Positions 22,134-57,222 of a stretch of DNA of 64,000 nucleotides are shown piece after piece (the stretch's first letter is position 1; each line of letters begins with the position of its first letter). Source of the stretch: an uncultured Hormoscilla sp. (GTDB lineage Bacteria; Cyanobacteriota; Cyanobacteriia; Cyanobacteriales; Desertifilaceae); assembly GCA_963921275.4 (NCBI GenBank), contig OZ001293.3, positions 5,056,001 through 5,120,000 of the forward strand, given 5' to 3'. Made by a program: the position numbers and the translations under genes. The notes below the pieces were generated by a model that worked only from the letters and a program-made list of their open reading frames with translations, made no database searches and was not told the origin of the DNA.

Positions 22134-22449
22134 TTAGACCTCTCCAAAAATTGAAATCCTTACCAGCCTTGGGTTTCAAGTATGTATCTCACTTGCTCAC
22201 ATATGTTACTCAAGCGACAAAATCGGAGTTTAATAGAGTTCCTGTAAATATTGCACTCTCTCGATGGTATTGGTTAACTTCAAAGTTTTCAGCGCCATCA
22301 CCCCTATCTACTACTTCTAAAATCAACGCACCAATTCGCAATCTTACTAACCCACAAATTGTGGAAATCACAGAGTTGAATTTTTCAGTATTTAAACGAA
22401 ATCTTTCACTGGCAACATGGCTAACGCCACGTGATCGAAAAATTTTCAC
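22134..22449 (-). mobile_element. IS5/DDE-type transposase 3' remnant
   Basis: KIFR...VASERFRLN...TICGLVRLRIGALIL; end TTAGACCTCTCCAAAAATT. Confidence 0.65.
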
Positions 22450-23135
22450 GTAACTGCTCACCGCAAAAAGTAGGGCTTGTTGAGAAAGGAAGAAAGAGAT
22501 AAATTACAAGCCCTATGCATCTGTTAAGTAGATTGCCATCATGGACCGCAACCAGCAAAAAGTAAGGCTTGTTGAGAAAGGAAGAAATAAATAAATTACA
22601 AGCCCTATGCATCTGTTAAGTAGATTGTTATCGGTGGCGGACCGCGACCAACAAAAAGTAGGGCTTGTTGAGATTAAGATAAATTACAAGCCCTATGCAT
22701 CTGTTAAGTAGATTGCAAGGTGGACCGCGACTAGCCAAGGACAAAAGTTCACGGCGCTCGCCGATGATTCTTGCAACCGCATAGTTTCGCTTGAGCTAAA
22801 CATCATTGCGACTAACTTAGCCCCCCAATCACTTCTGGCTCCACCGCTAACTTTGCGATGTACTACTACAGGACGCAATACCCGCTCGGCATCATTATTG
22901 TCCGGTTTAACTTCCTATGGGAGTTAGAAATGTGAACCATTCATCCCAATGGCGTTCAAGTCTATTAGCAAGTCTTTGGGCGTCCGCAGGCCATCCAGCA
23001 GATGGAGGCTGATCTAAAATTGTTTTCAGTTGCGTTTCTACACTTGGACGTTTTTGCGCTCTGTTGTAAGTTGCAACTATTCGATCGAGAATAAGCTTAT
23101 TCCCCATATTCCGCACGACAAGCTGTAACATGATA
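22450..23135 (-). mobile_element. IS66-family remnant
   Basis: GTAACTGCTCACC terminus; EWFTFLT...DNNDAERVLRPVVVHRKVSGGARSDWGA. Confidence 0.75.
22464..22736. repeat. Three ~92-96 bp tandem units with a TAGGGCTTGT/ACAAGCCCTA hairpin
   Basis: Units start at ~22464, 22556 and 22652. Confidence 0.85.
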
Positions 23136-25506
23136 GTGCGATTCGTTTAGTGTAAACTAACTTGACACAGGTCAAGGAAGGGGACCACTAGCAGGGTATC
23201 ATTAGCCCTGACAACTTATAGATGATGGTGGTGAAAGCCCACCCCTCCAGGTGCAGGAGTGAAAGCGTAATCCCTACGGTAGCGATGGCATCAATCCGTA
23301 AAGCGGGATTAAAAGGCACCCTGACTGCTAGCCTAAACCGGTCATTGTCGAGCAAGTAACTATGATGAGCGAAAGCAAAGACTTATAAGTGTCGTCATGC
23401 AGAACCAGCGAAAATGCTGAAACGCTGGCCTAAAAGGGAAAGGATAAAGGTCATTGGCGGTTTGTCATCCGACCAATAAGCACTGACAATAAACCCGGCA
23501 TATAGAGTCCATCTAAGGTTACAACCAATCATCTATAGGAACGAAGTAAACCAGGTATGCACTCTCTACCACCGGTCGATAGGTAGAGTAGCCACCAAAG
23601 GCGCAACATCTGCTTTCATCAGGCAGGTCATACTTGGGAGAGATTTCGCGGAGAAGCAAACGACCACCGGTAATAGGTGGTATACGCTGACGCCCTCACG
23701 GTAATGTCAATTGTGAAGTTGTAAGTAGCAATGCATACGTCATAAGCACGATGAACACATCGATGAATGAATGGAAGGATATCTCCTGGCGAAAGCTGGA
23801 ACGGGTAGTCCTCAAGTTGCAAAAACGAATTTACAGAGCGGCACAACGTGGCGACAAGCGGACAGTTCGCAGGCTCCAGAGGTTACTGGTAAAATCCCGG
23901 TCAGCCAAATGTCTAGCGGTACGACAGGTAACACAGGACAACCAGGGAAAAAAGACTGCCGGTGTGGACGGTGTAAAATCACTGACCGTAGAACAACGTC
24001 TAGAACTGGTAGGACAAATAGAAATCTCAAACAAGGCCAAACCCGCACGACGAGTGTGGATACCAAAGCCAGGGAGAGACGAAAAACGCCCATTAGGGAT
24101 ACCGACAATGTACGACCGTGCGACACAGGGGTTGCTAAAAATTGCGCACTTATCCTGAGTGGGAAGCGTACTTTGAAGCAAACTCCTACGGCTTCAGACC
24201 GGGAAGGGGATGCCACGACGCAATCGGAGCAATCTTTATTAGTATCAACAAAAAACCCAAATGGGTGTTAGATGCTGACATCGCAAAATGCTTAGATAAA
24301 ATTAACCACAAAGCGCTAATGGAAAAACTAAATACAACATCACCAATCCGTAAACAAATACGGGCATGGTTAAAAGCCGGGGTGATAGACAAGAGAGAAT
24401 GGTATGCAACCGAAGAGGGAACACCTCAAGGTGGAGTCATATCACCATTACTGGCAAATATAGCCCTACAGGGGTTAGAAAGAGCAGTAATAGAAATTGC
24501 CAAAACACAAAGAGAAAAGAAAAAACTGACAGTAGTCAGATATGCCGACGACTTTGTGGTAATGCATGATGAGAAAAAGAAGGTGGAAGAAGCACAAGTG
24601 GTTATAGCGAAATGGCTAAAGGGGATTGGACTAGAACTTAAGCCTGAAAAGACGAAGATAGCTCATACGCTGCACGGCGATAATCCAGGATTTGATTTCC
24701 TAGGATTCAACGTAAAGCAATATGAGGTAAGTAAAAACAAAAGCGGTAAGAACAACGGACAACCCCGAGGTTTCAAAACCCTCATAAAACCCAGTATAAA
24801 GTCCATAGGTAAGCAGAAAGAAAGGCTAGCGGAAGTACTGGCCAGCCATAAAGCAGCTCCGCAAGCTGCCCTGATAAACAAACTCAACCTAATAATACGG
24901 GGATGGGCAAACTATTACAGGACTGTGGTAAGCAAAGAAACTTACACAGATATGGACACCTACCTATGGAACATCCTGTGGAATTGGGCAAAAAGAAACA
25001 CCCCAACAAATCAAGTGAATGGATAGCCAAAAAGTACTGGACAATAAACCAGGACGTCGAATGGAGATTCAAAGAAGGGGAAGCCAAACTATACCAACAT
25101 GCAAGTACTAAGATAGTAAGGCATATCAAAGTAAAAGGAACAGCTAGCCCATACGACGGGAACCTCACTTACTGGAGCACTAGACTAGGCAGGAACCCAG
25201 AATTGAGCAATCTAGTAACAAAGCTGCTCAAAAGGCAAAAAGGGAAATGTCAATACTGCGGACAGACATTCAGAGATAGCGACAAGTGGGAAGTAGACCA
25301 CAGTAAGCCACTCTCATTAGGTGGTAAGGACCGGTGGGATAATCTACAACTACTACATAAACACTGCCACGACATAAAGACTGCCAATGATGGTAGCAGC
25401 CGTATCCGTGACAAGGATGGCATTACTGAGGAGCCGGATGAGGTGAAAAGCAGATCGTCCGGTTCTGAAGACTCCTCGGGGAGGTGACTCCCTGGCTTAG
25501 TTTAAT
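23136..25506 (+). mobile_element. Group II intron with RT/maturase/HNH ORF (23751-25487, two frameshifts)
   Basis: GTGCGATTCG...TTAGTTTAAT; PQGGVISPLLANI, RYADDFVV, C-terminal HNH; EBS1 TGTCAT pairs with exon ATGATA; altered domain V. Confidence 0.93.
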
Positions 25507-25509
25507 AGG

Positions 25510-25635: not shown

Positions 25636-26115
25636 TTAATTCTCAATTATTAATGAATAAAATTCTTCATCAAGAATTTGTTCGTTATCAAAAGGACAAA
25701 CTTGAGGATATTCGGACTCATTAGGAATGGGAATGTCAGAACTTGCTCGTTTTCCTTCTTTAATCGCCAGATCTCGACCATCACGATAAGATTCCTCTAA
25801 AATTTTGGGTAAATAGGATTTTAAGGAAGGGGTTTTACTCAGTTGTTTATTGATTCGCTTGCGATGTTCGTCAACAGAACTGTACCAGCTTTTTTTCATC
25901 GTTTCTGGGGCATCAGCTTGTACCGTTAATTTAAGCAGATGGGCGAGAAGTATCATTAAATTGCTTTCGAGGGCATTTTTTTCTGATTTACCCAAGTCTT
26001 TAAGTTCCTCAATCAAGTGTTCGATATCCAGTTCGGAGAAGCGATGATTTTTGAGTTTTTTGATATGATCTTCAATCCATAAGTTGAAGTCTAGATCGTA
26101 TAGTGTTTGTTTCAT
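25636..26115 (-). CDS. DUF29 family protein
   Basis: LYDLDFNLWIE...LDIEHLIEELKDLGKSEK...LLAHLLKL...PSLKSYL. Confidence 0.9.
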   Translation of the reverse strand: MKQTLYDLDFNLWIEDHIKKLKNHRFSELDIEHLIEELKDLGKSEKNALESNLMILLAHLLKLTVQADAPETMKKSWYSSVDEHRKRINKQLSKTPSLKSYLPKILEESYRDGRDLAIKEGKRASSDIPIPNESEYPQVCPFDNEQILDEEFYSLIIEN

Positions 26116-26360
26116 TGAGAATTGTTCATTGAGAATTGTTCATTGAGAATTGAAAAAAACCGAGAGAAAGTCAATTAAATATTACTAAAGTTACAATAAA
26201 TACAGTTATACTGAAAATACTGTTTAAATTACTTAGATGACAAGCGGCGGAGAGGAGCAAGGCACGCCAGCACTACCACAAGGATAGCCGCTAAGATTGT
26301 TTTTCCTTACTCTCGACAGTTACCATTATATCATCCATCTAATCTCTCTCAAATAAAATT

Positions 26361-27731
26361 GTGGAAGTGGTCGTTACTGGCATTTGTCTGGTGTCAGCTT
26401 TAGGGATGCTACAGACCAGTTGGCAGCGCCTGATCGCTGGTGAATCTGGCATCAGGCTTTCACAACCTTTTCGGGAACTGCCACCACGACCTCTGGCCCT
26501 AATTGGCAAAACTCCGATGTATCCTGGTGCTGCATCTCCTGGGAGCTTGATGTCCCCCGGACGCACTTCGATGCCTACCGTTCCGGAAAAATCGGGATGC
26601 TACGCTGCGCGAAAAATCGCAAAAACCTACGATGCCTTCCGGACGCACGGCGAAAACCCGGAAGGCATCGCTCAGACATCGTCGAAACCCGGGGGACATC
26701 ATCTGAGCACTACCCAGGAGATGCAGTGCGCTAATCCCACAACCCAGGATACCTCGGCAGCTGACTTAACTACTCTCACTCAGCTGGTGGTGACCGAGGC
26801 GATCGCCGATGCAGGTCTAGTCCTACCATTGCCAGATGCTGGGGTGGCGATCGGGTCTAGTCGCGCTCATCAGGCTTCCTGGGAACAGCTAGCTAGACAA
26901 TTACAAGAGGATTCTCTCATGTCCGGTGCCCATTGGTTGGATACCCTTCCGCATATGGTGGCGATCGCCTCGGCCCGGACGATCGGCTCTACTGGTCCGG
27001 TGTTAGCGCCAATGGCTGCTTGTGCTACGGGCCTCTGGGCGATCGCCCAAGGCTTCCATCTGATCCAGACTGGTCAATGCCAGCGGGCTATCGCCGGGGC
27101 AGTGGAAGCTCCGGTGACGCCCTTAACCCTGGCAGGCTTTACCCGGATGGGAGCCTTAGCTGCCACTGGTGCCTATCCTTTTGACAAAAATCGCGAAGGT
27201 TTGGTTTTGGGGGAGGGTGCAGCTGTCTTGGTGCTGGAGTCAGCAACGGTAGCTAGGCGTCGCGGAGCCCCTATTTATGGACGAGTGCTCGGGTTTGGCT
27301 TGACAAATGATGGTTATCATGCTATTGCGCCCCAACTGGGAGGCAAGAGAGCGATCGGGGCTGTGAAGCAATGTCTGGAGCGATCGGGCCTGGAGACAGC
27401 TGACATTGACTACATCCATGCTCACGGCACCAGTACGAGGTTGAATGACCAGAACGAAGCAAAATTAATTCAATATTTATTTCCTCAAGGCGTTCCTGTC
27501 AGTTCCACCAAGGGAGCTACAGGTCACAGCCTGGGAGCATCTGGGGCCTTGGGAGTAGCTTTCTGTCTGATGGCGTTACAGGAGCAGCTATTGCCCCCTT
27601 GTGTAGGATTGAAAGCACCAGAGTTTGATTTAGATTTACTGATGGCACCGCGTCGGTGTCAGGTGCGGCGAGTGCTGTGTTTGAGTTTTGGCTTTGGGGG
27701 CCAAAATGGGGCGATCGTCTTAGGAAAGTAA
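26361..27731 (+). CDS. fabF: Beta-ketoacyl-ACP synthase (FabF-like) with an 80-aa in-frame insertion
   Basis: [61 protein letters not shown]. Confidence 0.85.
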   Translation: MEVVVTGICLVSALGMLQTSWQRLIAGESGIRLSQPFRELPPRPLALIGKTPMYPGAASPGSLMSPGRTSMPTVPEKSGCYAARKIAKTYDAFRTHGENPEGIAQTSSKPGGHHLSTTQEMQCANPTTQDTSAADLTTLTQLVVTEAIADAGLVLPLPDAGVAIGSSRAHQASWEQLARQLQEDSLMSGAHWLDTLPHMVAIASARTIGSTGPVLAPMAACATGLWAIAQGFHLIQTGQCQRAIAGAVEAPVTPLTLAGFTRMGALAATGAYPFDKNREGLVLGEGAAVLVLESATVARRRGAPIYGRVLGFGLTNDGYHAIAPQLGGKRAIGAVKQCLERSGLETADIDYIHAHGTSTRLNDQNEAKLIQYLFPQGVPVSSTKGATGHSLGASGALGVAFCLMALQEQLLPPCVGLKAPEFDLDLLMAPRRCQVRRVLCLSFGFGGQNGAIVLGK

Positions 27732-27775
27732 GTAAGATAAATGTGTTATACTGCTGAAAAAAGAGGAGTCATTTT

Positions 27776-27997
27776 ATGCTAAAGACACATAGACAAAAAG
27801 CGATAATCCAGTCCGGAGGTGTGATAAGTATTAGCTCGCCAGAACTTCCAGCTGGTACGATAGCAGAGGTGATTGTGATTGTGGATGCATCGATTGAAGA
27901 GCCTAAAAAGTCCTTAACTAGCTTCATTGGGGCTGGTAAAGGTAGTTTGGCAACGCCAGAAGAAGCTGATGATTTTATCCGTCAACTGCGAGGATAA
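27776..27997 (+). CDS. Putative antitoxin; followed by a PIN toxin fragment (27997-28110)
   Basis: SPELPAGTIAEVIVIVD...GKGSLATPEEADDFIR; downstream RVYQDTNIWIY. Confidence 0.55.
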   Translation: MLKTHRQKAIIQSGGVISISSPELPAGTIAEVIVIVDASIEEPKKSLTSFIGAGKGSLATPEEADDFIRQLRG

Positions 27998-28110
27998 TGA
28001 ATATCTTAAACGCTATCCAGGGAAGGCGGGTGTATCAAGATACCAACATCTGGATTTATACCTGAGAAGAATATCCGACCTTTGTCACTGATTTAAGGGA
28101 ATTATTTCAA

Positions 28111-28571
28111 ATTTATGGACGAGTGCTCGGGTTTGGCTTGACAAATGATGGTTATCATGATAACGCGCCCGAACTGGGAGGGAAGAGGGCGATCGCAGCT
28201 GTCAAGCAATGTCTGGAGCGATCGGGCCTGGAGAGAGCTGACATTGACTACATCCATGCTCACGGCACCAGTACGAGGGAATGACCAGAACGAAGCAAAA
28301 TTAATTCAATATTATTTCCTCAAGGCGTTCCTGTCAGTTCCACCAAGGGAGCTACAGGTCACAGCCTGGGAGCATCTGGGGCCTTGGGAGTAGCTTTCTG
28401 TCTGATGGCGTTACAGGAGCAGCTATTGCCCCTTTGTGTAGGATTGAAAAGCACCAGAGTTTGATTTAGATTTACTGATGGCACCGCGTCGGTGTCAGGT
28501 GCGGCGGGTGCTGTGTTTGAGTTTTGGCTTTGGGGGCCAGAATGGGGCGATCGTCTTAGGAAAGTAAGTAA
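28111..28571 (+). pseudogene. Duplicated 3' end of fabF (copy of 27273-27735), frameshifted
   Basis: Near-identical nucleotide sequence with small indels. Confidence 0.9.
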
Positions 28572-28678
28572 ACGTTCCTTACAGACAATTTATTTATCTT
28601 TAGAAGCAACCGCGCTTACTTATTTTTTCCATCGTTTTGAGAATAAATAAAAATCACGAAATTTAGAGGAGGCAAGTC

Positions 28679-29368
28679 ATTCTCATTCAGTTTACAGATT
28701 TCAACGCTGCTTGTACTATCATCAGTACCGACTGCAATTCTCAATGGAACGATATTAGCAATGTACTCGATGCTATGCCACTACACCTAAAAGCTTCATC
28801 CCAGGCGGGACTTCAAGGCTATCCCATTTTCGATCCTGTAGGAACGAATGAATACATCAAAACCGAATTAGTTAACCTGGGATGGGAACCGAATAGTCCC
28901 ATTCCCAAACAATACAATTTTTTAGGAACCCATATTGATGCTGGTAAAGCAGGCGCGATCGTCGAGAATCAATTTTCCAACTATCCGTTTCTTCTCAATA
29001 ATACCATAAGATCCGATTTTTCGGGCCGTCCGCGGACCGTGCTTTTCTTTAACGCTGAGACCATGTTTTCTGGGTCAGCCACTAAACTGGTAATTATTAT
29101 CACAAAAGCTCATATGTTTCCTGCTTCTAACAGCACTCTATATTACGAACAAGCTGTCAACTGGTTGACAGCATTAGCTCAATATAATGTATTTGATGTA
29201 CCAATACGACTTGTGGGGTTGTTTGCACCGCAAAATTATACTGTATCTGTAAAATGGACTGTGTACCAGGCACAACGATCAAGAACTGTGATCGCGCAAC
29301 AAAATCGCCAATGCCAAATCATTTCCGGAACTAGACCTGACAGTCGTTGTGTTCTGAATTTACTCTAG
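28679..29368 (+). CDS. BglII/BstYI-like type II restriction endonuclease (likely impaired)
   Basis: THIDAGKAGAIVENQFSNYPFLLNN, PASNSTLYYEQ; GAGGAGG followed by ATT at the probable start; 24-nt insertion. Confidence 0.7.
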   Translation: MLIQFTDFNAACTIISTDCNSQWNDISNVLDAMPLHLKASSQAGLQGYPIFDPVGTNEYIKTELVNLGWEPNSPIPKQYNFLGTHIDAGKAGAIVENQFSNYPFLLNNTIRSDFSGRPRTVLFFNAETMFSGSATKLVIIITKAHMFPASNSTLYYEQAVNWLTALAQYNVFDVPIRLVGLFAPQNYTVSVKWTVYQAQRSRTVIAQQNRQCQIISGTRPDSRCVLNLL

Positions 29369-29384
29369 CAACAATAGGTTAATT

Positions 29385-30494
29385 CTACAAGTCAAGCTCC
29401 AGTTGCTGATTTTTCGGGCCGTCCGCGGACCGTGCAACTTGAGTTTTTTCTGGTGTCTTTTTTCCCTTTCCATTCAGCGTAGAATCTACTGGACGTTCTT
29501 CCCCTCGTAAATCAGCAGCAAAGGCTGCTTCTTCATAATATAATCTTTCTTCCATTTCCTGCAAGTGGTATTCTTCTGGGTATATCTTTGCCTTTGAACG
29601 TTCCGACGGTCTTTTCCCAATTTGGACGTCAAACCGGAATTTATCAATAGGTTCACCCGTTCTTTCTATGTAGTTTCGCAAGGTTTTCAAGTTTGGAAAA
29701 CATCCATTTTCATCTGGTTCACCACTCAGACGCCGCATCGCTATTTGATGATAGGTTGGATTCATTTCTGCACCGATAAAATGTCGTTCCCAGTCTCTGG
29801 CAACAACTGCTACTGTACCAGCCCCCATATAGGGATCGAAAACTACTTCATTTTTGTAAGTTGTTGCTAAAATAATTCTCGCTATCAAGTCTTCTGGAAA
29901 TTGACAAGGATAAATTGTTTGTTCTTCGTGGTTGTGTTTGACATTCGAAAATAACCAGATATCCCCAGGATTTTTTCCCTTTGGGTTACAAGATAGTTGA
30001 CCTTTGCGATCTCCTCGGTAATGTTTTTTATTCTGGTATTTCTGCGGTACTCTAATCTCATCTAGATTAAAGGTATAGTCTTTAGATTTCGTAAACCACA
30101 AAATTGTTTCGTGGCGACAGGAAAATTTATTTTGCGCGTGCAGTTCATGTTGTCTAGCCCAAATAATCCGGTTTCTGGGAATTAATCCACAAGATTCTAT
30201 AATTGGGAAAAAGCGGATATCTAAGGGAATTAACATTCCCCGATCTGAAAAAGCCCCTATTTGCAAAAATAGCGCTCCAGTCTGTTTGAGAATTCTGCTA
30301 CATTCTTTTAGGACAATAGTCTGTTCTCTTAAATAATTATCCAATGCTTGCTTAGCTTCGTATTCCTTACCTAAATTATAACGTGGCGAGGAGACAACTA
30401 AGTCCACACACTCATCAGGTAATTCTTTGAGTACATTCAAGCAATTTCCTAGAAATATTTTGTCCAGCGGTAGTTTTTCTTTATCCATCGTCAT
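29385..30494 (-). CDS. N4/N6 DNA methyltransferase (beta class); catalytic motif reads SPRY
   Basis: DLVVSSPRYN, NPGDIW, CQFPEDLIARII, VFDPYMGAGT. Confidence 0.9.
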   Translation of the reverse strand: MTMDKEKLPLDKIFLGNCLNVLKELPDECVDLVVSSPRYNLGKEYEAKQALDNYLREQTIVLKECSRILKQTGALFLQIGAFSDRGMLIPLDIRFFPIIESCGLIPRNRIIWARQHELHAQNKFSCRHETILWFTKSKDYTFNLDEIRVPQKYQNKKHYRGDRKGQLSCNPKGKNPGDIWLFSNVKHNHEEQTIYPCQFPEDLIARIILATTYKNEVVFDPYMGAGTVAVVARDWERHFIGAEMNPTYHQIAMRRLSGEPDENGCFPNLKTLRNYIERTGEPIDKFRFDVQIGKRPSERSKAKIYPEEYHLQEMEERLYYEEAAFAADLRGEERPVDSTLNGKGKKTPEKTQVARSADGPKNQQLELDL

Positions 30495-30510
30495 TTAACT
30501 AGAACATCAC

Positions 30511-31116
30511 TCATTTGTCTCCGGCCATCCAAACTAGGTAACCTAACATCCGATCTACTGGTGGCAAGGAATACACATTCAGGTCTATTGTGAGGGTTGA
30601 TTGCACTAAGCTCATAAACTGCCATTGAATCCCATTACTCACACTACCATAAATCCTCGGGATGGGATGAGATTGCGCCTCATTAAACCGTTGAACGGCA
30701 ACCATCTCAGCAATGCACTGACCAAAACCTGTTTTCAGATCGGTTCTATTCGCTTCCACCACCACAACCGCTGGCGCTTCAATTTCTAGGACTGCTGTTG
30801 AACGGGTAAGCAAAAAATCACAGACCCCATTTAGCCCCGCTGATTCATCGACATTAAATTCTTCTCCAGAAAATAGGCTAACCTGACGATCTAACTGTCG
30901 TCTTACTTCGAGCAGCATTGGGTAGATAATTCCTTCTGAACGGGCTTTCTCACTTCCCGATATCGCTACTATTGGTAAGCTTTCTTGGAGATAGCCCTCT
31001 AGGATGGGGGAAGGTTCGATCGCCTCTATCTCTGGCAAAAAGCGATCGCCCTCAACCACGGTCAAGTTGAAAGCTGTTTTGGCGCTGCTAATGGTTTTGA
31101 ACTGACTGTAAGACAT
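30511..31116 (-). CDS. Conserved cyanobacterial PD-(D/E)XK-like protein (paralog of 52649-53281 and 53768-54010)
   Basis: SEKARSE, LFSGEEFNVD, GVCDFLL, GQCIAEMVA, YGSVSNG. Confidence 0.75.
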   Translation of the reverse strand: MSYSQFKTISSAKTAFNLTVVEGDRFLPEIEAIEPSPILEGYLQESLPIVAISGSEKARSEGIIYPMLLEVRRQLDRQVSLFSGEEFNVDESAGLNGVCDFLLTRSTAVLEIEAPAVVVVEANRTDLKTGFGQCIAEMVAVQRFNEAQSHPIPRIYGSVSNGIQWQFMSLVQSTLTIDLNVYSLPPVDRMLGYLVWMAGDK

Positions 31117-31129
31117 GGGACGATCGAGT

Positions 31130-31567
31130 TTACTCGTGACTAGGTAGAACCTAGTCACGAACCCCAGAGGCTCTGCCTCAAAAGAGGCTGATGGCTTGAT
31201 AGTATGATAACATGAGGCTCTGCCTCACACAAGACGTTCCCAGACTCTGGCTGGGAACGCGAGTTAAAATAACTTACTCGTTACTCGTGACTAGGTAGAA
31301 CCTAGTCACGAACCCCAGAGGCTCTGCCTCTTTTGAGGCCGATGGCTTGATAGTATGATAACATGAGGCTCTGCCTCACACAAGACGTTCCCAGACTCTG
31401 GCTGGGAACGAGTTAAAATAACTTACTCGTTACTCGTGACTGGGTTCTACCTAGTCACGAACCCCAGAGGCAGAGCCTCTTTTGAGGCTGATAGCTTGAT
31501 AGTATGATAACATGAGGCTCTGCCTCATACCAGGCGTTCCCAGCGGTCGTCTGGTGTGAACGAGTTA
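31130..31567. repeat. Three ~150-bp tandem multi-hairpin repeats (GAGGCTCTGCCTC / CGTTCCCAG..CTGGGAACG family)
   Basis: Units start at 31130, 31281 and 31430; related single copies near 12296 and 47827. Confidence 0.9.
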
Positions 31568-31577
31568 ATTGAATTGT

Positions 31578-32798
31578 TTATATTCCCATTGCCTGACCTG
31601 CCAACCAACCAGTAGTCCAGGCACTCTGGAAATTGAACCCGCCAGTAACGCCATCAATATCCAGAATTTCCCCGGCAAAATATAAACCCCGACAACAGCG
31701 ACTCTCCATTGTTTGAAAATTCACTTCCTGCAAACTCACTCCACCACAAGTGACAAACTCTTCGTTAAACGCCCCTTTACCTGTAATTTGATAAGTTCCT
31801 TGGTTCAGTTCTAGCACTAACTCGTGCAATAATTTATTAGATAACCCTGCCCATCTATCCTGTTCCCTAATACCGACATTATACAGTAACTGCTGCCAAA
31901 GACGGCGGGGCATGGGAACAGGACAGCTAGATGCGATCGCCCGCTTGGGCAGTTGGGACTTGACCTGCAACAGCATTTTCCGCAATTGTTCTTGCTGGTA
32001 CTGGGGCAACCAATTTACTATTAATGATGTCTGATAACCGCATTCATGCAAAACCCTCGCCCCCCAAGCAGAAAGTTTCAAGATCGCCGGACCACTCAAC
32101 CCCCAATGGGTAATTAACAATGGTCCAGTTTGTGCTAACTTGGCTATGGGCAACTGCACTCGCACATTTTCCACGGAAACCCCTGCTAAACCTTCAATCC
32201 GAGGATCGGAAATCTTAAAAGTAAACAAAGAAGGAACGGGTGGGATAATTTGATGACCATTAGCTGCTGCTAGTTGATAACCCCGTCGGTTGCTACCTGT
32301 GGCCAGAAGGACGCGATCGGCCTCTAACCTTTCTCCAGACTTCAACCCGACCACAAACTCATCCGGTTGCCGGGAGACAGAAACCACCGTTGCACCTGTA
32401 CGCATATTCACCCCAGCCCCGATCGCCCCTTGCAGGAGACAATCTACAATAGTTTGGGAATCATCCGTAACGGGAAACATCCGTCCATCGGCCTCAGTTT
32501 TCAACTGCACCCCGTGGGAGACGAACCAGTTAACAGTATCCCGGGGTTGAAAGCGGGTGAAAGGGCCCCGCAACGCTTTCCCACCTCTAGGGTAATTTTG
32601 TACCAGCGTAGCGGGGTCGAAATAATCATGAGTCACGTTACAGCGTCCGCCCCCAGAGATGCGGACCTTGGATAGCAGTTGGACTCCCGCTTCCAGTAAC
32701 GTAACTTCGGTGTGTCCATGGCAAGTCGCGCAGGCGATCGCCCCAAAAACGCCCGCCGCGCCACCACCGACCACCACAATTCTCTGCCAACTCATCAA
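31578..32798 (-). CDS. HI0933/BaiN-family flavoprotein
   Basis: GGGAAG, KVRISGGGRCNVT, FVTCGGV, GEILDIDGVTGGFNFQSAW. Confidence 0.93.
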   Translation of the reverse strand: MMSWQRIVVVGGGAAGVFGAIACATCHGHTEVTLLEAGVQLLSKVRISGGGRCNVTHDYFDPATLVQNYPRGGKALRGPFTRFQPRDTVNWFVSHGVQLKTEADGRMFPVTDDSQTIVDCLLQGAIGAGVNMRTGATVVSVSRQPDEFVVGLKSGERLEADRVLLATGSNRRGYQLAAANGHQIIPPVPSLFTFKISDPRIEGLAGVSVENVRVQLPIAKLAQTGPLLITHWGLSGPAILKLSAWGARVLHECGYQTSLIVNWLPQYQQEQLRKMLLQVKSQLPKRAIASSCPVPMPRRLWQQLLYNVGIREQDRWAGLSNKLLHELVLELNQGTYQITGKGAFNEEFVTCGGVSLQEVNFQTMESRCCRGLYFAGEILDIDGVTGGFNFQSAWTTGWLAGQAMGI

Positions 32799-32800
32799 AT

Positions 32801-32962: not shown

Positions 32963-33109
32963 GTTGGTGTCCTCCTCATCTTGCCTGGATCTTACCAGTT
33001 TATTACACCTGAATTATAGAAAGAAACCAGGTATATGGGAAAAACCTGGTTTCTGGGCGACTGGTGAATATGTCCGTAGCGAGAATCTCCTCCCATTTCA
33101 ATGAGTATT

Positions 33110-35513
33110 ATTAAACTAAGCCAGAGGGTCACCCCTCCGACTCGTCTCCAAAACCGGACTTGATACTTTCGCATCATCCGGCTCCTCAGTAACGCCACCC
33201 TTGTCATGGGTACGGCTGTGACTACCATCGCTGGCAGTCTTTATATCGTGGCAATGTTTGTGTAGTAACTGTAGGTTGTCGTACTGGTTTTTACCCCCTA
33301 ATGAGAGGGGCTTGATATGGTCAACTTCCCACTTGTCACCACCCATAAACGTTAATCCGCATTGTTGGCACTTTCCCTTTTGTCTCTTGAATAGCGTTGC
33401 TACCCTCTTATTTAGCTCGGGGCTTTTGCCTAATCTCGTACTCCAATATGTAAGGTTCCCGTCATATGGGCTTGCTGTACCTTTCACTTTTATGTGCCTG
33501 ATTATCTCAGTTTCGGAGTGTCTGTACAGCGTTATTTCTTCCTCTCCTATTTGGCACCGGAATCGCCATTTACCGTCCTCACTCAGGGACCAGTACTTAC
33601 GAGCTATCCAATGACTGGATTTATTGGGATGTCTCCTTTTTGCCCACTGCCAGAGAATGGTCCATAGGTAGCGGTCCATGTAGCTGTATGTTTCTTTACT
33701 TACCACTGTCCTATAATAGTTTGACCATCCCCGTATTATCGTGTTTAGCTTACTTATTAAGGCTGCTTGTGGTGCTGCTTTATGGCTGGCCACCATTTCT
33801 GATAGCCGTTCTTTATGCTTCCCTATGGACTTATTACTGGGTTTGATTAGGGTTTTGAATCCTAGGGGTGTTCCGTTGGTTGACTTGCCGGTTCTGTATT
33901 TACCTATCTCATATTGCCTTACTTTGAAACCCAGGAAGTCAAACCCCGGGCTTTCTCCTTTTAGCGTATGAGCTATTTTTGTCTTCTCGGCTTTCAATTC
34001 TAGCCCTATTCCCTTTAGCCATTCTGCCACCACTATCTGCGCTCTGTCTATCATTCCCCTATCTTCATGCATTACCACAAAGTCATCAGCATACCTGACT
34101 ACTGTCAGCTTTTGCTTTTCTTTTTGTGTCCTGGCGAGTTCTTTTACTGCCTCCTCTAGTCCATGTAGGGCTATGTTGGCTAGTAGTGGTGATATGACTC
34201 CCCCTTAGGGTGTTCCCGCTTCGGTTGCATGCCATTCTCCTTTGTCTATCACCCCGGCTTTTAACCATGCCCGTATCTGCTTACGGATTGGTGACGTAGT
34301 ATTTAATTTTTCGACTAGCGCTTTGTGGTCTATCCTGTCGAAACATTTCGCAATATCTGCATCTAATACCCATTTGGGTTTCTGTTTAATGCTGCTGAAT
34401 ATTGCTTCGATCGCGTCGTGGCATCCCCGACCCGGTCTGAATCCGTATGAGTTCCCCTCCATATATGCTTCCCATTCGGGTTCAAGCGCAATCTTGAGGA
34501 GCCCTTGATTCGCGCGGTCGTGCATCGTGGGTATTCCTAAAGGACGTTTTTCTTCTCTCCCTGGCTTAGGAATCCATACACGACGTGTAGGCTTAGCCTT
34601 GTTTGAGATTTCAATCTGACCTACCAGTTCTCGACGTTGCTTTGGGGTTAGTGATTTCACACCATCCACACCGGCTGTCTTCTTTCCCTGGTTATCTTGT
34701 GTAACCCGTCGTACCGCTAGACATTTGGCAGCCCGGGAGCTTACCAGTAACCTTTGGAGCTTGCGAACTTTTTGCTTATTGCCTTCTTGTGCCGCTCTGT
34801 AAATTCGTTTTTGCAACTTAAAGACTACCCGTTCCAGCCGAGGCCAGGGGATATCCTTCCATTCATTCATCGATTTCGACATCGTGCTCATGACGTATGT
34901 ATTGCTACTTACAACTTTACAATTGACGTTACCGTGACGGCGTCAGCCTATCCCATCCATTACAGACGGGCATTTGCTTCTCCACTCAATCTTTCCCAGT
35001 TGCGACCTGCCAAATGAAAGCAGATTTTTTTCGCCTGCGGTGGCTACTCCATCTATCGACCGGTGATGGAGAGTCTACAACCGGTTTACTTCGTTCCTAC
35101 AGATGATTGGTTGTAACTTTAGATGGGTTCTATACGCCGGGTTTATTGTCAGTGCTTACTGGTCGGGATAACATCCGCCAGTGACTTATATCCTTTCCCT
35201 TTTGGGCCAGTGTGTCAGCCTTATTACACTGGTTTAATGTAACGACGCTGCAAACCTTTGCTTTATGCTCATCATAGCTACTTGCACGCTGCGCGAAAAA
35301 TCGGCGATAACCGGTTTAGGCTCCCAGTTAGTACGCCTTTCATCCCCGCTTTACGGATTGATGCCATCTCTACCGTAGGGGAAGTGCTGTCACGAGAGCA
35401 CCTGAAAGGGGTGGACTTTCACCACCATCATCTGTAAGTTATCAGGGCAAATGAAACCCTGTTAGCAGTCCCCCACCAGTTATTACTGGCGGTTTATGCT
35501 AAACGAATCGCAC
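33110..35513 (-). mobile_element. Group II intron with RT/maturase/HNH ORF (34891-33116; single nonsense codon at 34205-34207)
   Basis: GTGCGATTCG...TTAGTTTAAT; GTP*GGVISPLLANI, RYADDFVV; homologous to 23136-25506. Confidence 0.93.
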
Positions 35514-39805: not shown

Positions 39806-40011
39806 ATTCTACCTCGATAATAACTTAACTACTGTTTGAGTTACATCCCATCGTTTACTTGGATGTAATATCGCTGGTTATTCTCCAGAATTTACGCAAA
39901 TCTGCTAGACCATACTGGTGGTAGCCTTTGACAGGGACTTTACATAAACCTGTCGTAAGTCCTGTTCTCTATATTATATGTTATAGCGACATGTCCATAA
40001 ATTTTCTATAT

Positions 40012-40720
40012 ATCCTGCCCCAGTTCTCTGATTTTTCCGGAACGGTGGTCCGGCGATCGCCCTAGCACCACTGTTAACTCCATAACTCTTATTCTATCAT
40101 ATCCTGCCCCAGTTCTCTGATTTTTCCAGAACGGTGGACTGGCGATCGCCCTAGCACTACTGTTAACTCCATAACTCTCATTCTATCATATCCTGCCCCA
40201 GTTCTCTGATTTTTCCAGAACGGTGGACTGGCGATCGCCCTAGCACCACTGTTAACTCCATGACTCTCATTCTATCATATCCTGCCCCAGTTCTCTGATT
40301 TTTCCAGAACGGTGGACTGGCGATCGCCCTAGCACCACTGTTAACTCCATAACTCTCATTCTATCATATCCTGCCCCAGTTCTCTGATTTTTCCAGAACG
40401 GTGGACTGGCGATCGCCCTAGCACTACTGTTAACTCCATAACTCTCATTCTATCATATCCTGCCCCAGTTCTCTGATTTTTCCAGAACGGTGGACTGGCG
40501 ATCGCCCTAGCACTACTGTTAACTCCATAACTCTCATTCTATCATATCCTGCCCCAGTTCTCTGATTTTTCCAGAACGGTGGACTGGCGATCGCCCTAGC
40601 ACTACTGTTAACTCCATAACTCTCATTCTATCATATCCTGCCCCAGTTCTCTGATTTTTCCAGAACGGTGGACTGGCGATCGCCTGGCACCACTGTTGAC
40701 TTCATGACTCCCATTCTACC
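40012..40720. repeat. Tandem array of eight 89-bp units
   Basis: ATCCTGCCCC recurs at 40012, 40101, 40190, 40279, 40368, 40457, 40546 and 40635; each unit has a HIP1 site. Confidence 0.95.
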
Positions 40721-42184: not shown

Positions 42185-43269
42185 ATGGATCAGCCTATAA
42201 CCGACCTTGCCGAAGTCCTGAAGAACCAACCCCAACTGGATTTCCAGTTGCCATCGCCAGAAGATGAAGAGATTTCCGACCTGGAGTTTCAGCAGCAGTT
42301 GGAGTCCGCTTGGCAAGTGTGCGATCGCTTTGACTTGCAAACGGACATCTGGCGGGGGCGGATCCTGCGGACCATCCGGGACCGAGAGAAAAAAAGCGGC
42401 GAAGGACGGGGGAAAGGATTTCTCAACTGGCTCAAGCAGCGGGATATTACTAAAAGCCAAGCTTATGCCTTGATTCAATTGGCCAATAGTGCCGATACCC
42501 TCTTGAGTGAAGGAAATCTGGATCCAGAGGCCATCAACAACTTCAGCAAACGCGCTTTTGTCGAAACGGCCAAATCGGATCCGGAAGTGCAACAACTGGT
42601 CAGCGATGCCGCCCAAAGAGGCGATCGCATTACCCGCCGAGAGGTCCGGCAACTAGCTGACGAATGGACAGCCATGTCCTCAGACTTACTGCCCGCAGAA
42701 GTTAAAGAACAGGCAACTACCGGTTCATTGCCGACCCGTCACCTAGCACCCCTGGTCAAAGAATTAGAGAAACTGCCAGAGTCTCACTTGCATGCCATAA
42801 AATCAGAAGTGGCCGAGCATCCAGATGTAGATACTGTCAAGCAGATGACCTCAGAATCTCGCAACTTAGCCAAGTATCTCGACGCCGCTGCCCAAGTACA
42901 AGCATTAAATGATGGGCCCGTAGACATGGAAATGGCCTTAGAAGAAGCCCTGCGCCTGGGTTGTCTGAATACTGCTTCAGACCTGGTTAAGCAAGCCACC
43001 CAACTGGAGCAGACTATAGTCAAACTATACACCACCTGGAAACGTTTGGGAAATCTGGCTGATAGAATATATGTAGAGACAGGCGCTTCCACCCCCATCT
43101 GCGATCGCTCCTGGTCAGCTTGGGTATACTGACGGGAGAAGTGATGCAAGTACCCTTGTCCGATTTTTCCGGAACGGTAGGGGGCGATCGGTCCGCGGAC
43201 GGCCCGAAAAATCGCACCGTCCGCCTGCAAATCCTCTCCGATTTTTCCGGAACGGTGGACCGCCTGTAG
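42185..43269 (+). CDS. Conserved cyanobacterial hypothetical protein (frameshift ~43095; three micro-insertions in the 3' end)
   Basis: FDLQTDIWRGRILR, FSKRAFVETAK; the tail continues in another frame to QILS..EDRL*. Confidence 0.75.
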
Positions 43270-43298
43270 GCGATCGGGGACTGGTGACCACTCACTCG

Positions 43299-46594: not shown

Positions 46595-47060
46595 AGATCT
46601 AATTTCGTCGAGCGCGCCGATCGCTGCGCGAAAAATCGAAAAAGAATGGCAGGCGCCCCCAGCGTAGCGCCATCGGACGAGTGGTATATACTAAAATTAG
46701 TACACAATTGTTTACATTACTCTCATCTACAGCAGTTATTGGGCTGCTGGCTGTCGGAGTCTGTCGATGGCCTTGGCTGCTTGCTGGTATTAAGTTAGCA
46801 GAAGTGGCAGCTGTATGGGCAGACAAGATTGGGAGTAATTTTTATTATACCCCATATATCTAGCTAATGTCAAGCCCGGAGAGATATGAGCGATCGCCCT
46901 CTCTTTGCTGTCTTGTTTTTTATGGTCTAGTCGCTTTACGAACTTCCCGAATTGTAGAGCAGATAGCGCTGGTGCCCAATGAAAGGCGGCATGGGTGCTG
47001 TCGATAAGAGTGATTGGACAAGAATGCTGCGTAGATAATTGAGTTTTGAGTTTTGAGCTT

Positions 47061-49863: not shown

Positions 49864-51545
49864 TCAGCCAAACATCTCGTTAAAGTCTTCTTCAAAAAAT
49901 CCATCCGGCCACTCATCGATAAAGTCGCCGTCTTCGTCAAGTCTCAATGACAAGCATTTGGAGCCTTCCGCCCCTCGATCTACATATATTACAGAGATAT
50001 CTTCCGGTTTTAGTTCTCCTTTTCTAATTAACTTCTGAAGCCTGAGCATGAGGTGTTCGCTGTGGGTTTCTATGATAAACTGATTATTGATAGGTGGCTT
50101 AATACATTCTGCCAGTAGGGAACCAGTTCCGCTTGCAAGCGGGGGTGGATGTGGATTTCTGGTTGCTCGAATAGCAGAGTTGTGTTGCGAGAGAGCATAC
50201 TCTGGACGATAATTGGCAAAACTTGACTGATGCCAAAACCGACATCTTGCAGGCTGACATTGACCCCTGTATACTCATCGACTAACTGCAAGGCAAAGAT
50301 ATCGCTGATTTCACTGGCTTCTGAGTTGGTGAATTTGGCCACCTTAAATTTGTATTTTAAGTCGAAGCGCCCGAGTTGATCGTTTACCCGCTGGAGGAGT
50401 TCGGGATTTTTGAACAAAATGTCTGGCACCATTTTTCCCGACTTGCCCACCTGTTTGCCTGTGTTACCGCTAAAAGTATAAATCCTTTCTGGGTACTCCC
50501 GCAAGGGTCCGATGTATGTCATTTCTTCAAAGATCGATCGGCATACCTCGCTAGCTAGTATAGTCAGATCGTAAATATTAGGGGGATTTTTGGGTTTGTA
50601 AACATTAGATAATTTCCATACTTCTTCTGAAGGCTTCGATTCTTCTAAATCCTGCTCATCTGCTCGGACGGGTAAAAATTCTCGGCAGTACAGATATGGA
50701 TCCGTACTTAACTGTAATAAGTCCTCCTTTGCCTTATCCCAACTATAATATTCAAAATGCTCCCACAATCTTATCAAGAATTCAATAGAAAACAATACTT
50801 TTTCTACCTCTTTTCTTTCAATCTCATCTGGATTAATTTCTACCAACTTATCTTTTAACTCTTTTTGACAATCGTATAGTTCTTCTGGCAATCTCTTTGT
50901 CCATTCTTTACGATCTTGTAATTTTAACTTGGTAAATATTCTCTTTACCTCTTCCTCTCTCCTCTTAAATATCACTTCTTTCACTTGTTCATACCATTTT
51001 AACCAAATGATATGTTCTTCATTAATTAGATATTTTTAAAAAGCTGTATTCTGAAAGCTATCACTCTCATATTGCCAGCTCTTTTTGTCTAAAAGTCTAT
51101 AGCATATCAATGAAGATGGATCGTCACCCATAAACAGCTCGATACTGGATAGCACTACCTTCGATGTCTTCTTATCATAGGCAAAAGTAACCTGCAATTC
51201 TAAAATTGGAGCCAACTCAAAATCTTTGGGAACGATCTTCCAAAAATCCTCTTGGAGTTCCGGTTCGTCCAGTTCCAGCTTTACCTTGAACGAGAAAGAC
51301 TGACTGACATCGTGCCGGCGGACGAATTCCCGATAACTGCCCAGGTTGACGAGATTGCCCTTGGGTAACAATACCGTATCGGGGTCTTCAGCTTCCTGGA
51401 GAGTCTGTTTGAGCAGCAGGAGTGATTGCAGCACCGAACTCTTGCCAGAAAAGTTGGGACCGTAGATCAGCGTGATGGGTCGAATCGGAAGTTTCTCCGG
51501 TCCGGCAAATGCTTTGAAATTGGTCAGTTGGTACTCTCGCAGCAA
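49864..51545 (-). pseudogene. AAA ATPase (DUF3696-type C-terminus), with a stop and a frameshift
   Basis: NFKAF, GPNFSGKSS, YIGPLR, DVGFGISQVLP, EQPEIHIHP, ETHSEH, DEWPDGFFEE. Confidence 0.8.
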
Positions 51546-51605
51546 TATTCTACTCCTTTTCGCGGTTGCTTCATGAATTTTGGTAGGGTGGGCGGTCCCC
51601 ACCCT

Positions 51606-51998
51606 ACATTCTACAATTCTATCACTCTCTGCCTGCCATCAACCCGGTTTTTTAGCTTTTTCGAGGATTGCCCGATCGCCCTGCACCGGTCAGCCACCAT
51701 TAAGTACATACATTCTACAATTATATCACTCCCTGCCTGCCATCTACCCTGTTTCTTAGCTTTTTCGAGGATTGCCCGATCGCCCTGCACCGGTCAGCCA
51801 CCATCAAGTACATACATTCTACAATTATATCACTCTCTGTCTGCCATCTACCCTGTTTCTTAGCTTTTTCGAGGATTGCCCGATCGCCCTGCACCGGTCA
51901 GCCACCATCAAGTACACACCCTACATTCTACAATTGGATCACTCCCTGTCTGCCATCAACCCTGTTTCTTAGCTTTTTCGAGGATTGCCCGATCGCCT
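51606..51998. repeat. Four ~104-bp tandem units
   Basis: TCGAGGATTGCCCGATCGCC at 51661, 51765, 51869 and 51978. Confidence 0.92.
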
Positions 51999-52389: not shown

Positions 52390-52552
52390 AATAAGCTATT
52401 GCAGGCTTACAATAAGCTATTGCAGGCGTACAACAAGCTATTGTTGACTTACAACAAAATATTGCAGGCGTACAACAAGCTATTGTTGACTTACAACAAA
52501 ATATTGCAGGCTTACAATAAGCTATTGTTGGCTTACAACAAGCTATTGTAAA
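52390..52552. repeat. About eight 21-bp tandem repeats
   Basis: AA(T/C)AAGCTATTG(CAGG/TTGA)C(T/G)TAC units. Confidence 0.9.
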
Positions 52553-55695: not shown

Positions 55696-55737
55696 GATTC
55701 GCTATCATCATAATATTTCCAAGCGGAGTTTCACCCA

Positions 55738-57222
55738 ATGCCCACTCAAACCCTGCCCAATATACCAGAAATTATTGACGGATTGCCCAATATCTGCGGT
55801 TGGGAAGCAGAAATAAATTCCGTCGTGCAAGGGTCAAAACCGGTCTTTTTACCCAGCACAAATATCCGCTTAGAACAGGTAACCTCCGCCTTTGCGATCG
55901 CCCTCCACATGCACCAACCCACCATCCCGGCAGGCGCAAATGGCGAACTAATTAGCAATCTGCAATACATGTTTGAACATCCCCAGGAAGGGGACAATCA
56001 CAATGCGGGTCCATTTGCCAATTGTTACAGCCGCATGGGTGATATTATACCGGAACTGGTAGCACGAGGTTGCAATCCCCGCGTCATGCTAGATTATTCG
56101 GGAAATCTGTTGTGGGGCTTGCGGCAAATGGGACGGGGAGATATCATAGAAAAGCTTCAGGGCATTACATGCGATCAGGCTTATCAACCCCATGTAGAAT
56201 GGTTGGGGACAATGTGGAGTCATGCAGTGGTGCCATCCACCCCCATACCGGATATCAAACTGCACATCCAAGCATGGCAACAGCAATTTGCCAGCATATT
56301 TGGGTTAGAAGCATTAGGGCGAGTCAAGGGGTTTTCGCCGCCAGAGATGGCATTACCAAACCACCCGGACACCCTGTTTGAATTTATTAAAGCCCTGAAG
56401 GCATGTGGCTATCGCTGGCTATTAGTGCAAGAACATACGGTGGAGACCCTGGAGGGCCAACCCATACCCGAAAAATACCTGCCCAACCGTCTGATCGCCC
56501 GGAATGGCAAGGGAGAAACCATCAGCATCACGGCCTTAATCAAAACCCAGGGTTTCGATACGAAACTGGTAGGTCAGATGCAGCCCTATTATGAAGCCAA
56601 AACCAGGGTAAAACAGCAGCTAGGGGATATAGAAGTCCCCTCATTAGTCACGCAAATAGGGGATGGCGAGAATGGGGGGGTGATGATGAATGAATTTCCC
56701 TCCGCCTTCCAGCAAGCGTGGCAAGAAATGGCCCAGAATGTAGTGGGAGTCAACGGCACGGAATATCTAGAACTAATAGCAGCAGCCGGTTGCCATCCCG
56801 ATCATTATCCCTCTTGTCAGGCAGTAGGTCAACAGGAAATATGGTCGCGCGTGGACCTAGAGAACTGCACCCCCGCAGCAGTAGAACAGGCGATCGCCTG
56901 CATCAAAGAAGACAATCCCAATTATCATATAGAGGGAGCATCTTGGACAAATAACATCAGTTGGGTAAAGGGGTACGAGAACGTGTTAGGGCCGATGAAT
57001 CAACTCAGCGCCAAGTTTCACGAAAAGCTGGACCCATTGGGCAGAGTCAGGGAAAATATTACTCAGTCTTCCGATTTTTCCGGAACGGTGTATCGTCAAG
57101 CACTGCTTTACAACCTGTTACTTCAGACTAGCTGTTTTCGTTACTGGGGACAAGGAACCTGGACCGACTACGCCCGGGAGATTTACCAAAGGGGCGAGTC
57201 TTACCTCAGAAATGCATTCTAA
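55738..57222 (+). CDS. Glycoside hydrolase family 57-like protein
   Basis: ALHMHQP, GFSPPEM, QTSCFRYWGQG. Confidence 0.8.
   Translation: MPTQTLPNIPEIIDGLPNICGWEAEINSVVQGSKPVFLPSTNIRLEQVTSAFAIALHMHQPTIPAGANGELISNLQYMFEHPQEGDNHNAGPFANCYSRMGDIIPELVARGCNPRVMLDYSGNLLWGLRQMGRGDIIEKLQGITCDQAYQPHVEWLGTMWSHAVVPSTPIPDIKLHIQAWQQQFASIFGLEALGRVKGFSPPEMALPNHPDTLFEFIKALKACGYRWLLVQEHTVETLEGQPIPEKYLPNRLIARNGKGETISITALIKTQGFDTKLVGQMQPYYEAKTRVKQQLGDIEVPSLVTQIGDGENGGVMMNEFPSAFQQAWQEMAQNVVGVNGTEYLELIAAAGCHPDHYPSCQAVGQQEIWSRVDLENCTPAAVEQAIACIKEDNPNYHIEGASWTNNISWVKGYENVLGPMNQLSAKFHEKLDPLGRVRENITQSSDFSGTVYRQALLYNLLLQTSCFRYWGQGTWTDYAREIYQRGESYLRNAF

Follow-up and report, generated by a model that had tools for sequence, protein, structure and literature searches.

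A family of 15- to 24-nucleotide insertion sequences found 3′ of CCGA in the cyanobacterium Hormoscilla

How can DNA sequences of 15–24 nt, too small to encode a mobiliser, come to stand as identical copies at many places in a genome? The question is raised by a stretch of 64,000 nt from the cyanobacterium Hormoscilla (contig OZ001293.3; hereafter the window, by which the whole 64-kb stretch is meant), for which an original prediction, made from the sequence alone, had described short inserts of four types (A, B, C and D), landing just after CGA, as site-specific micro-insertions that add peptides to proteins. The mobility of sequences of around 20 nt has reportedly been an open question since small dispersed repeats (SDRs) were described in 2008. 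Empty sites in relatives, seen in both protein and DNA, and a sharp target logo bear out the core of the prediction for types A, B and C, which are real insertions; they stand as complete units immediately 3′ of CCGA, in either orientation and both within and between genes, and with two further forms, C′ and E, they make up a single family of non-coding insertion sequences. Since the divergence of the sampled Hormoscilla species, copies have been acquired and on occasion lost; presence/absence differences support the predicted activity of the system over that period.

Insertions and empty sites

All of the predicted inserts were recovered as exact matches at their predicted positions, with lengths of 15, 15, 24 and 18 nt for types A, B, C and D, and the preceding trinucleotide is, as had been described, CGA at 10 of the 12 sites and TGA at the other two (29410 and 40032). 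They are listed below with related features of the window; a slash within a sequence marks the insertion point, HIP1 denotes highly iterated palindrome 1, and GM7CHS1pb is a Hormoscilla sp. used for comparison.

26577..26591, minus strand: type A, 15 nt, exact match; in a fabF-like gene, within a 243-nt repeat nest
40032..40046, plus strand: type A, after TGA; first unit of an 89-bp tandem array
43164..43178, plus strand: type A, after CCGA; no known gene in the region; common to GM7CHS1pb (no alignment gap)
43242..43256, plus strand: type A, after CCGA; common to GM7CHS1pb
57075..57089, plus strand: type A; in a glycoside hydrolase family 57 (GH57) gene, changing Glu to Asp-Phe-Ser-Gly-Thr-Val
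26602..26616, minus strand: type B, 15 nt; in the nest of the fabF-like gene
35286..35300, minus strand: type B; in domain I of a group II intron
46621..46635, minus strand: type B, A-ending, followed by TCG; just downstream of accA
29017..29040, plus strand: type C; in a BglII/BstYI-family restriction endonuclease gene, adding 8 residues
29410..29433, plus strand: type C, after TGA; near the 3′ end of an N6/N4 DNA methylase gene (minus strand)
43188..43211, minus strand: type C, 24 nt, A-ending; inside a HIP1 site that is intact (GCGA/TCGC) in the GM7CHS1pb orthologue
22417..22434, minus strand: 18-nt 'type D'; family membership unsupported
26515..26757, plus strand: small palindromic repeats nested in frame over 243 nt of the fabF-like gene, a type A and a type B copy included
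40004..40718, plus strand: 89-bp × 8.1 tandem array with an A-like 15-mer and a HIP1 site in each unit
1265..1286, minus strand: 22-nt A-like string after CGA, inside the gyrB intein; like type A with 7 extra bases

The window holds five exact copies of type A where 0.17 are expected by chance, three of type B (0.24 expected) and three of type C (0.00 expected). A one-mismatch form of type A, TTTTTCCAGAACGGT, occurs seven times, always within the 89-bp array (40004–40718); because it is the other seven units of the array that carry this form, its A-like 15-mers are counted as copies made with the array and not as separate insertions. Type D did not hold up as a member of the family and is set aside: its single copy in the window is at chance level (3 of 100 shuffles also gave one match at ≤3 mismatches), it is absent from 1.135 Mb of relatives, and it has stop codons in three of six frames. 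The 18-mer folds into a 7-bp hairpin of −5.2 kcal/mol (z −2.8). The A-like string at 1265–1286 (minus strand) has a length that is not a multiple of 3; the gyrB gene around it (2–3091, plus strand) contains an intein (Pfam Intein_splicing, residues 397–822).

The GH57 protein of the window is closest to proteins named Hormoscilla (92% identity), and positions 25642–44392 (~19 kb) are syntenic with a contig of Hormoscilla sp. GM7CHS1pb at 96–98% identity; the genus is placed in the order Gomontiellales, not in Nostocaceae. Alignment of host genes to their orthologues revealed empty sites, and not residues already present throughout the orthologues. In GH57, 4 of 20 aligned proteins are filled (the window and P0002–P0004) and read SSDFSGTVYRQ, whereas the other 16, comprising P0005–P0008 at 90–93% identity and 12 more distant cyanobacterial homologues, are empty and read SSE-----YRQ or similar. 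The DNA reads TCC GA/[15 nt]/G TAT, such that a Glu codon is split after GA. For the BglII/BstYI-family nuclease only one of 10 proteins is filled: the window reads IRSDFSGRPRTVLFF, whilst P0242, which is 98% identical, reads IRSEF--------FFN without the 8 residues, as do eight further proteins; all eight homologues outside Hormoscilla lack them. Removal of the inserts had been expected to restore plausible peptides (IRSELFF, TQVAQQLE and SEGGDRTVRLQILSEDRL); IRSELFF, the one compared with proteins, does match the homologues of the nuclease.

In the fabF-like gene the insertion is 243 nt long (81 residues) and consists of nested, repeated palindromic modules that include A and B. The whole nest is missing from the GM7CHS1pb orthologue and from three proteins at 86–88% identity, P0122–P0124; two proteins at 96% identity carry shorter forms without A or B. 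The empty-site control that the original prediction found in the window itself also stands: the group II intron copies at 23180–25507 (plus strand) and 33109–35473 (minus strand) are 78.5% identical and differ, with an exact 15-nt gap, as CGA[TTTTTCGCGCAGCGT]GCAAG against CGAGCAAG, which is exactly type B, and an intron copy in the GUM202 assembly is also empty at this site. Likewise, removal of the type C copy at 43188–43211 was predicted to restore a HIP1 site, and the orthologue does read GCGA/TCGC. The type C copy at 29410..29433 is common to GM7CHS1pb, with a syntenic counterpart at 18354–18376 of locus L018.

When type C sites were paired by their flanks among the window and four Hormoscilla assemblies, 25 pairs were filled in both partners and 13 had a gap of 0, the latter corresponding to 10 distinct empty sites (that in the window HIP1 included) and one tandem extra copy; the junction of the empty allele is YGA at eight of the 10 sites. 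The empty alleles keep CCGA, which therefore belongs to the target and not to the element, and the junctions exhibit neither duplication nor deletion of the target. In an unbiased catalogue of indels from cross-genome alignments, the 24-nt class is almost entirely type C.

The contrary explanation, in which the elements are not insertions, but either an ancestral state that relatives have lost by deletion or a functional motif repeatedly evolved under selection, can draw on the fact that deletions of elements do happen (copies A_81 and C_159, below). It is already close to refuted: identical 15- and 24-mers stand in unrelated, unique flanks, all 12 distant GH57 homologues and all eight non-Hormoscilla nuclease homologues lack the residues, and the intron paralogues differ by exactly the element.

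When 185,579 species genomes were scanned with a type C 23-mer, at least 112 stretches were returned; at least 107 type C loci are among the matches listed, all of them in four Hormoscilla assemblies, and those listed merge into 95 segments of 1,134,985 bases. This 1.135 Mb of relatives contains 123 exact copies of type C, 45 of A, 9 of B and none of D. The collection-wide scan was for type C only, and the counts of A and B refer to loci picked by type C; since A and B copies played no part in choosing the loci, their densities of ~40 and ~8 per Mb are fair estimates. As far as seen, among the matches listed, the family of A, B, C, C′ and E is confined to Hormoscilla. A search of 72,556 plasmids with a query stretch containing A and C returned 12 records, none cyanobacterial and none with an E-value below 0.09. 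The Hormoscilla genome paper that was consulted makes no mention of 'insertion', 'transposase' or 'pseudogene'.

Target site, hairpin and reading frame

The bases preceding the insertion point are sharply constrained. For type C (n = 123) they are C at −4 in 100 copies, C (110) or T (10) at −3, G at −2 in 118 and A at −1 in all 123; for type A (n = 45), C at −4 in 43, C (36) or T (7) at −3, G at −2 in 45 and A at −1 in 45, this second logo being drawn from the flanks alone and hence unbiased. The base following the element is coupled to the terminal base of the element itself: T-ending copies have a purine next in 108 of 117 cases, and A-ending copies a T in 67 of 69, mostly as TCG(C). This rule holds equally in sense, antisense and non-coding settings. 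The background of ~9,500 CCGA sites in 1.2 Mb (next base A 2242, C 1939, G 1601, T 3759) indicates that the avoidance of C at +1, and of T at +1 by T-ending copies, is real. Thus CGA, as predicted, is present at the insertion point, but the full target is CCGA plus a constrained +1 base.

HIP1, which the original prediction put forward as a site, is used but is not preferred. A-ending type C copies follow CCGA in 43 cases, TCGA in nine and GCGA in six, whilst GCGATCGC is three times as frequent as CCGATCGC (2050 versus 671); true HIP1 is consequently about 20-fold less favoured than CCGATCGC. Type C copies stand in CGA/TCG in 57 of 123 cases, each regenerating CGATCG on the right side, whereas 44 of the 45 type A copies and half of type C occupy CCGA/purine sites, which are not CGATCG. 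The wider notion that CGA is the target of all small palindromic Hormoscilla insertions was rejected, as just 13 of 56 cross-genome indels (12–140 nt) can be placed after CGA; 11 of these 13 are type A or C, and the control trinucleotides GCG, CCG and TCG score as high. Other small palindromic insertion families, of 44–63 nt and with arms such as GATGTCTCC...GGAGACATC, lie at 43293–43355, 26515–26757 and ~32374 (the last present in GM7CHS1pb only); they vary between Hormoscilla genomes, nest in one another and have no CCGA target.

A census of copies standing after YGA in the sample gave the following forms.

Form C: 128 copies
Form A: 48 copies
Form B: 12 copies
Form C′ (arm-swapped C): 9 copies
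One-mismatch form of A, mostly from the array in the window: 8 copies
Form E, a new 15-mer, TTTTTCGGGAACCGT: 4 copies
Wobble variant of A: 3 copies

All forms share a common design of TTTTT, then a GC-rich hairpin, then one terminal base. The hairpin of A, B and E has a 3-bp stem with a GAA or GCA loop, and that of type C a TCCG loop on a 7-bp stem containing one G.A mismatch, folding at −7.2 kcal/mol, or −8.4 kcal/mol in a CGA...TCG setting. Form A reads CCG-GAA-CGG and form E reads CGG-GAA-CCG, whilst C and C′ swap the mismatched G.A pair; these arm swaps indicate that the structure is kept while the sequence changes. The T tract is likewise constant, ATTTTT preceding 138 of 147 type C hairpin cores. 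The variants differ by point changes and are full in length, and no truncation series, a mark of reverse transcription, was found among them. Longer palindromic relatives were considered as parents of type C and rejected, there being just four odd cases in the 147 cores.

Coding sequence is not avoided: 132 of 188 copies (~70%) lie in stop-free frames of at least 120 codons, compared to 77.5% of all bases. In these long frames 53 copies are sense and 79 antisense, and most of the sense copies interrupt a codon between its second and third bases. The tolerance of genes for the elements follows from a length that is a multiple of 3 together with the lack of a stop codon in any of the six frames of A, B, C and E; composition-matched shuffles manage the latter in 24–59% of cases, such that the absence of stops is suggestive only. 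By adding residues to proteins in place, the elements are a steady source of small in-frame insertions: five to eight residues have been added to a glycoside hydrolase and to a restriction enzyme, and elements form part of the 81-residue nest in a fatty-acid synthase homologue.

The histories of individual copies inform on gain and loss. On a tree of 12 GH57 proteins, no fewer than two changes are required to explain the filled state, two being forced by its starred branches, and none of 200 bootstrap trees allows one. This points to a site hit more than once, to precise loss, or to exchange of alleles between lineages. Loss by slippage is also seen: a 9-nt loss between TTTCCG repeats has shortened the type A copy A_81, and the CCGT of the empty C_159 allele is what slippage between the two CCG repeats would produce. 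Finally, GUM202 has a tandem C-C pair, the first copy of which ends in CCGA, where SP12CHS1 has a single copy.

Possible routes of movement and other mobile DNA in the window

For the mechanism we tentatively favour mobilisation in trans by a hairpin-reading, single-strand DNA enzyme of the HUH kind, which we regard as possible and not yet as probable. Such an enzyme would read the hairpin of the element on single-stranded DNA and would make its left cut after CCGA and its right cut one base past the hairpin foot, in a manner likened to that of HUH/Y1 transposases acting on repetitive extragenic palindromic (REP) sequences and on the ends of IS200/IS605 insertion sequences; the +1 base and the last base of the element would be matched during cutting or joining, T with a purine and A with T. 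The model is favoured because it would explain the precise site, the lack of target duplication, the movement of whole units and the covariation of the hairpins.

A number of observations weigh against it. Pfam scans found no Y1 or REP-associated tyrosine transposase (RAYT) among 197 open reading frames (ORFs) within 500 nt of copies, and none among the 49 ORFs of the window that were scanned; a strict search for HUH motifs in 1.2 Mb yielded two unconvincing ORFs of 1,756. The absence of a mobiliser is nonetheless weak evidence, as these searches, in five genomes, covered under a fifth of any one genome. The mobile genes of the window are a DDE transposase, an IS607-like remnant and group II intron reverse transcriptases, with no HUH enzyme. 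IS608 and ISDra2 have a lagging-strand bias, unlike neighbouring copies of the elements, whose orientation is the same 42 times and opposite 42 times. Each element has one hairpin and not the two subterminal hairpins of IS200/IS605 ends, and the hairpins of A and B, at −1.5 and −1.9 kcal/mol (z 0.0 and 0.6, nearest-neighbour rules), are no stabler than shuffles, so that the case for these 3-bp hairpins is one of covariation. We also know of no coupling between the last base and the +1 base in HUH transposons. A tnpB fragment near the type C copy in locus L077 was considered as a link and rejected, since its insertion-sequence homology to other copies begins ~180 nt away, and amongst 30 listed pairs of inverted elements bracketing genes nothing stood out.

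The main rival, though we hold it to be unlikely, is RNA-templated, target-primed insertion, in which the top strand would be nicked after CCGA, its 3′ end would pair with the UCGG of a small RNA (5′-A-hairpin-AAAAA-UCGG-3′), and a reverse transcriptase would write TTTTT-hairpin-T into the nick, as in a miniature short interspersed nuclear element or with a telomerase-like template. The variation at −3 (C/T in 110/10 of 123 type C and 36/7 of 45 type A copies) does look like wobble pairing, as does the occurrence at +1 of A or G after a last base T, and of T after a last base A; an A5 tail would have served as template for the T5 tract, and the tandem C-C copy, the first ending in CCGA, could have re-aligned on the template. 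Reverse transcriptases are plentiful, with four group II intron matches in 64 kb in addition to reverse transcriptase ORFs, but group II intron reverse transcriptases are specific to their own RNA. Truncated or copies of variable length, however, are not seen, the T tract being fixed (138 of 147 cores after ATTTTT), the junctions lack target duplication or deletion, the −1 position is A in 168 of 168 copies although a guide U would tolerate G, and no template locus was seen in 1.2 Mb.

Two further explanations dispense with such machinery. Copy-choice through microhomology, in which a growing strand with CCGA at its end jumps to a copy already present, copies it and jumps back, or short-patch gene conversion, would need no dedicated enzyme; we consider it rather improbable. 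The A-ending C copies are flanked by direct CCGA repeats (TCGG on the other strand), with 4–8 nt of microhomology at CGATCG-like sites, and slippage losses between short repeats are observed (A_81 and C_159), yet the T-ending copies, 117 of 186, are exact in length without a matching return repeat (CCGA ... CCGT), and 4 nt of homology is far too common, at ~9,500 CCGA in 1.2 Mb, to explain why few sequences spread or why C is avoided at +1. More doubtful still is a by-product of CGATCG/HIP1 machinery, whereby a nuclease opens CGA/TCG-like sites, into which a fragment derived from a hairpin and having TCG...CGA-like ends would be ligated. It would account for the 57 of 123 type C copies that regenerate CGATCG, and B and C start TTTT-TCG, giving a left junction of CGA-TTTT-TCG; in Nostoc, SDR5 lies within HIP1 according to later papers. 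Against this stand the 44 of 45 type A copies and the half of type C at CCGA/purine, as well as the under-use of HIP1 (GCGA 6 versus CCGA 43) despite the abundance of GCGATCGC.

If, on the other hand, the elements are the smallest self-spreading DNA sequences described (15 nt), with a sequence of their own that helps to choose the target, then guide-like, possibly RNA-templated machinery of a hitherto undescribed kind would be implied; we put this forward as a speculative proposal, more doubtful than the HUH-type model. In that case pairing would let the terminal base pick the base at +1 (A or G for T, T for A), and the tolerance of C or T at −3 would resemble that of a wobble pair. Whichever route applies, the Hormoscilla family offers several handles: a base-exact insertion point, a four-base target with a coupling rule, hairpin covariation, many filled/empty pairs in several related genomes, and one gene site with at least two changes of state. 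Any proposed enzyme or RNA must reproduce the target and coupling rules, which makes candidates testable with oligonucleotides.

Other mobile and repeated DNA surrounds the elements. The IS607-like remnant occupies 5933–7349, with a MerR-type helix-turn-helix ORF (6568–7128) and tnpB fragments, and has related copies in GUM202 and SP12CHS1. Rfam gives four intron domain V–VI matches in the window; the intron at 33109–35522 (minus strand) is missing from the syntenic GM7CHS1pb site, and its insertion is thus also polymorphic. Beside it lie an Imm8 immunity-protein homologue (35502–35870, minus strand) and an AAA_21/AbiEii-like ATPase (36657–38081, minus strand), which may be defence or toxin-immunity genes. 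The restriction endonuclease and the N6/N4 DNA methylase stand tail to tail at 28775–30494, with one type C copy each. A 1.38-kb segment (27735–29118) is missing from GM7CHS1pb and holds a 96% duplicate of the 3′ end of the fabF-like gene (28111–28571 versus 27273–27735). Tandem arrays at 22463–22716, 31130–31543, 51605–51997 and 52393–52548 have units of 92, 149, 104 and 42 bp, respectively; of these, the array of 149-bp units is far shorter in GM7CHS1pb, and in the 104-bp unit a HIP1-like site follows TTTTTCGAGG. Gene fragments at 3382–3669, 11828–12208, 13485–13868, 50070–51602 and 61372–63315 (kinase, HAMP, EamA, split AAA ATPase and split glycosyltransferases) suggest widespread gene decay.

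Comparison with known systems

Elhai et al. are said to have described, in 2008, eight SDR families (SDR1–8) of 21–27 nt in Nostoc punctiforme and its relatives. The Hormoscilla elements share with SDRs their nature as very small, near-identical dispersed repeats, present or absent at homologous sites, in genes and in HIP1, with an unexplained mechanism; this likeness, which the original prediction had drawn, fits the accounts of SDRs in later papers. According to these, SDR5 of Nostoc is 21 nt long and lies between the third and fourth bases of HIP1, one paper reports no SDR outside Nostocaceae, and another, dated October 2026, still calls the function of SDR5 unknown. The type C copy in the HIP1 site of the window can take the same position as SDR5, because CGA is repeated at both ends of the insert. 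The host is nonetheless different, with elements in Hormoscilla (Gomontiellales) lying outside Nostocaceae; two of the types are just 15 nt against 21–27 nt, and the preferred site is CCGA and not HIP1. The Hormoscilla elements appear to be a new family of the SDR kind in a new lineage, the comparison with SDRs being one of descriptions. If guide-like machinery of the speculative kind above is at work, it might also lie behind the unexplained SDRs of Nostoc and the association of these with HIP1.

Members of IS200/IS605 insert 3′ of a fixed tetra- or pentanucleotide without target duplication and have hairpins near their ends. Insertion 3′ of a fixed short sequence without duplication is common to the Hormoscilla elements, which differ in having one hairpin and not two, in their length of 15–24 nt and not >100 nt, and in their lack of orientation bias between adjacent copies (42:42); near a copy, tnpB was seen just once, as a broken IS607-like remnant with homology that stops ~180 nt short of the element. 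Rickettsia palindromic elements (RPEs), at ~100–150 bp, are much longer and come from an unrelated phylum, and we know of no CCGA target for them. They are described as in-frame palindromic repeats inside genes that probably still make protein. Cyanobacterial miniature inverted-repeat transposable elements such as Nezha are ~130–170 bp or more, are non-autonomous and have filled and empty sites between close relatives, like the present elements, but they carry terminal inverted repeats and flanking direct repeats, neither of which is present at the junctions of the elements.

In form the family resembles REP sequences, which likewise occur in many copies and as families particular to a lineage. 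A short GC-rich stem-loop with a conserved unpaired tag at one end may be a further likeness: the T5 tag and the covarying stems speak for it, whilst the hairpins of A and B are no stabler than shuffles. The tag is TTTTT as opposed to the GTAG or CGTC of REPs, the stems of A, B and E have just 3 bp, and no RAYT was found beside any element copy (197 ORFs; ~1.2 Mb, five genomes). Nor is the extragenic location of REPs shared, since ~70% of the elements lie in long open frames, although some REPs are found within ORFs. REPINs have been proposed to be non-autonomous mobile DNA, and the same authors name SDRs as a case to examine. Taken together, the Hormoscilla family behaves like SDRs and looks like a tagged mini-REP.

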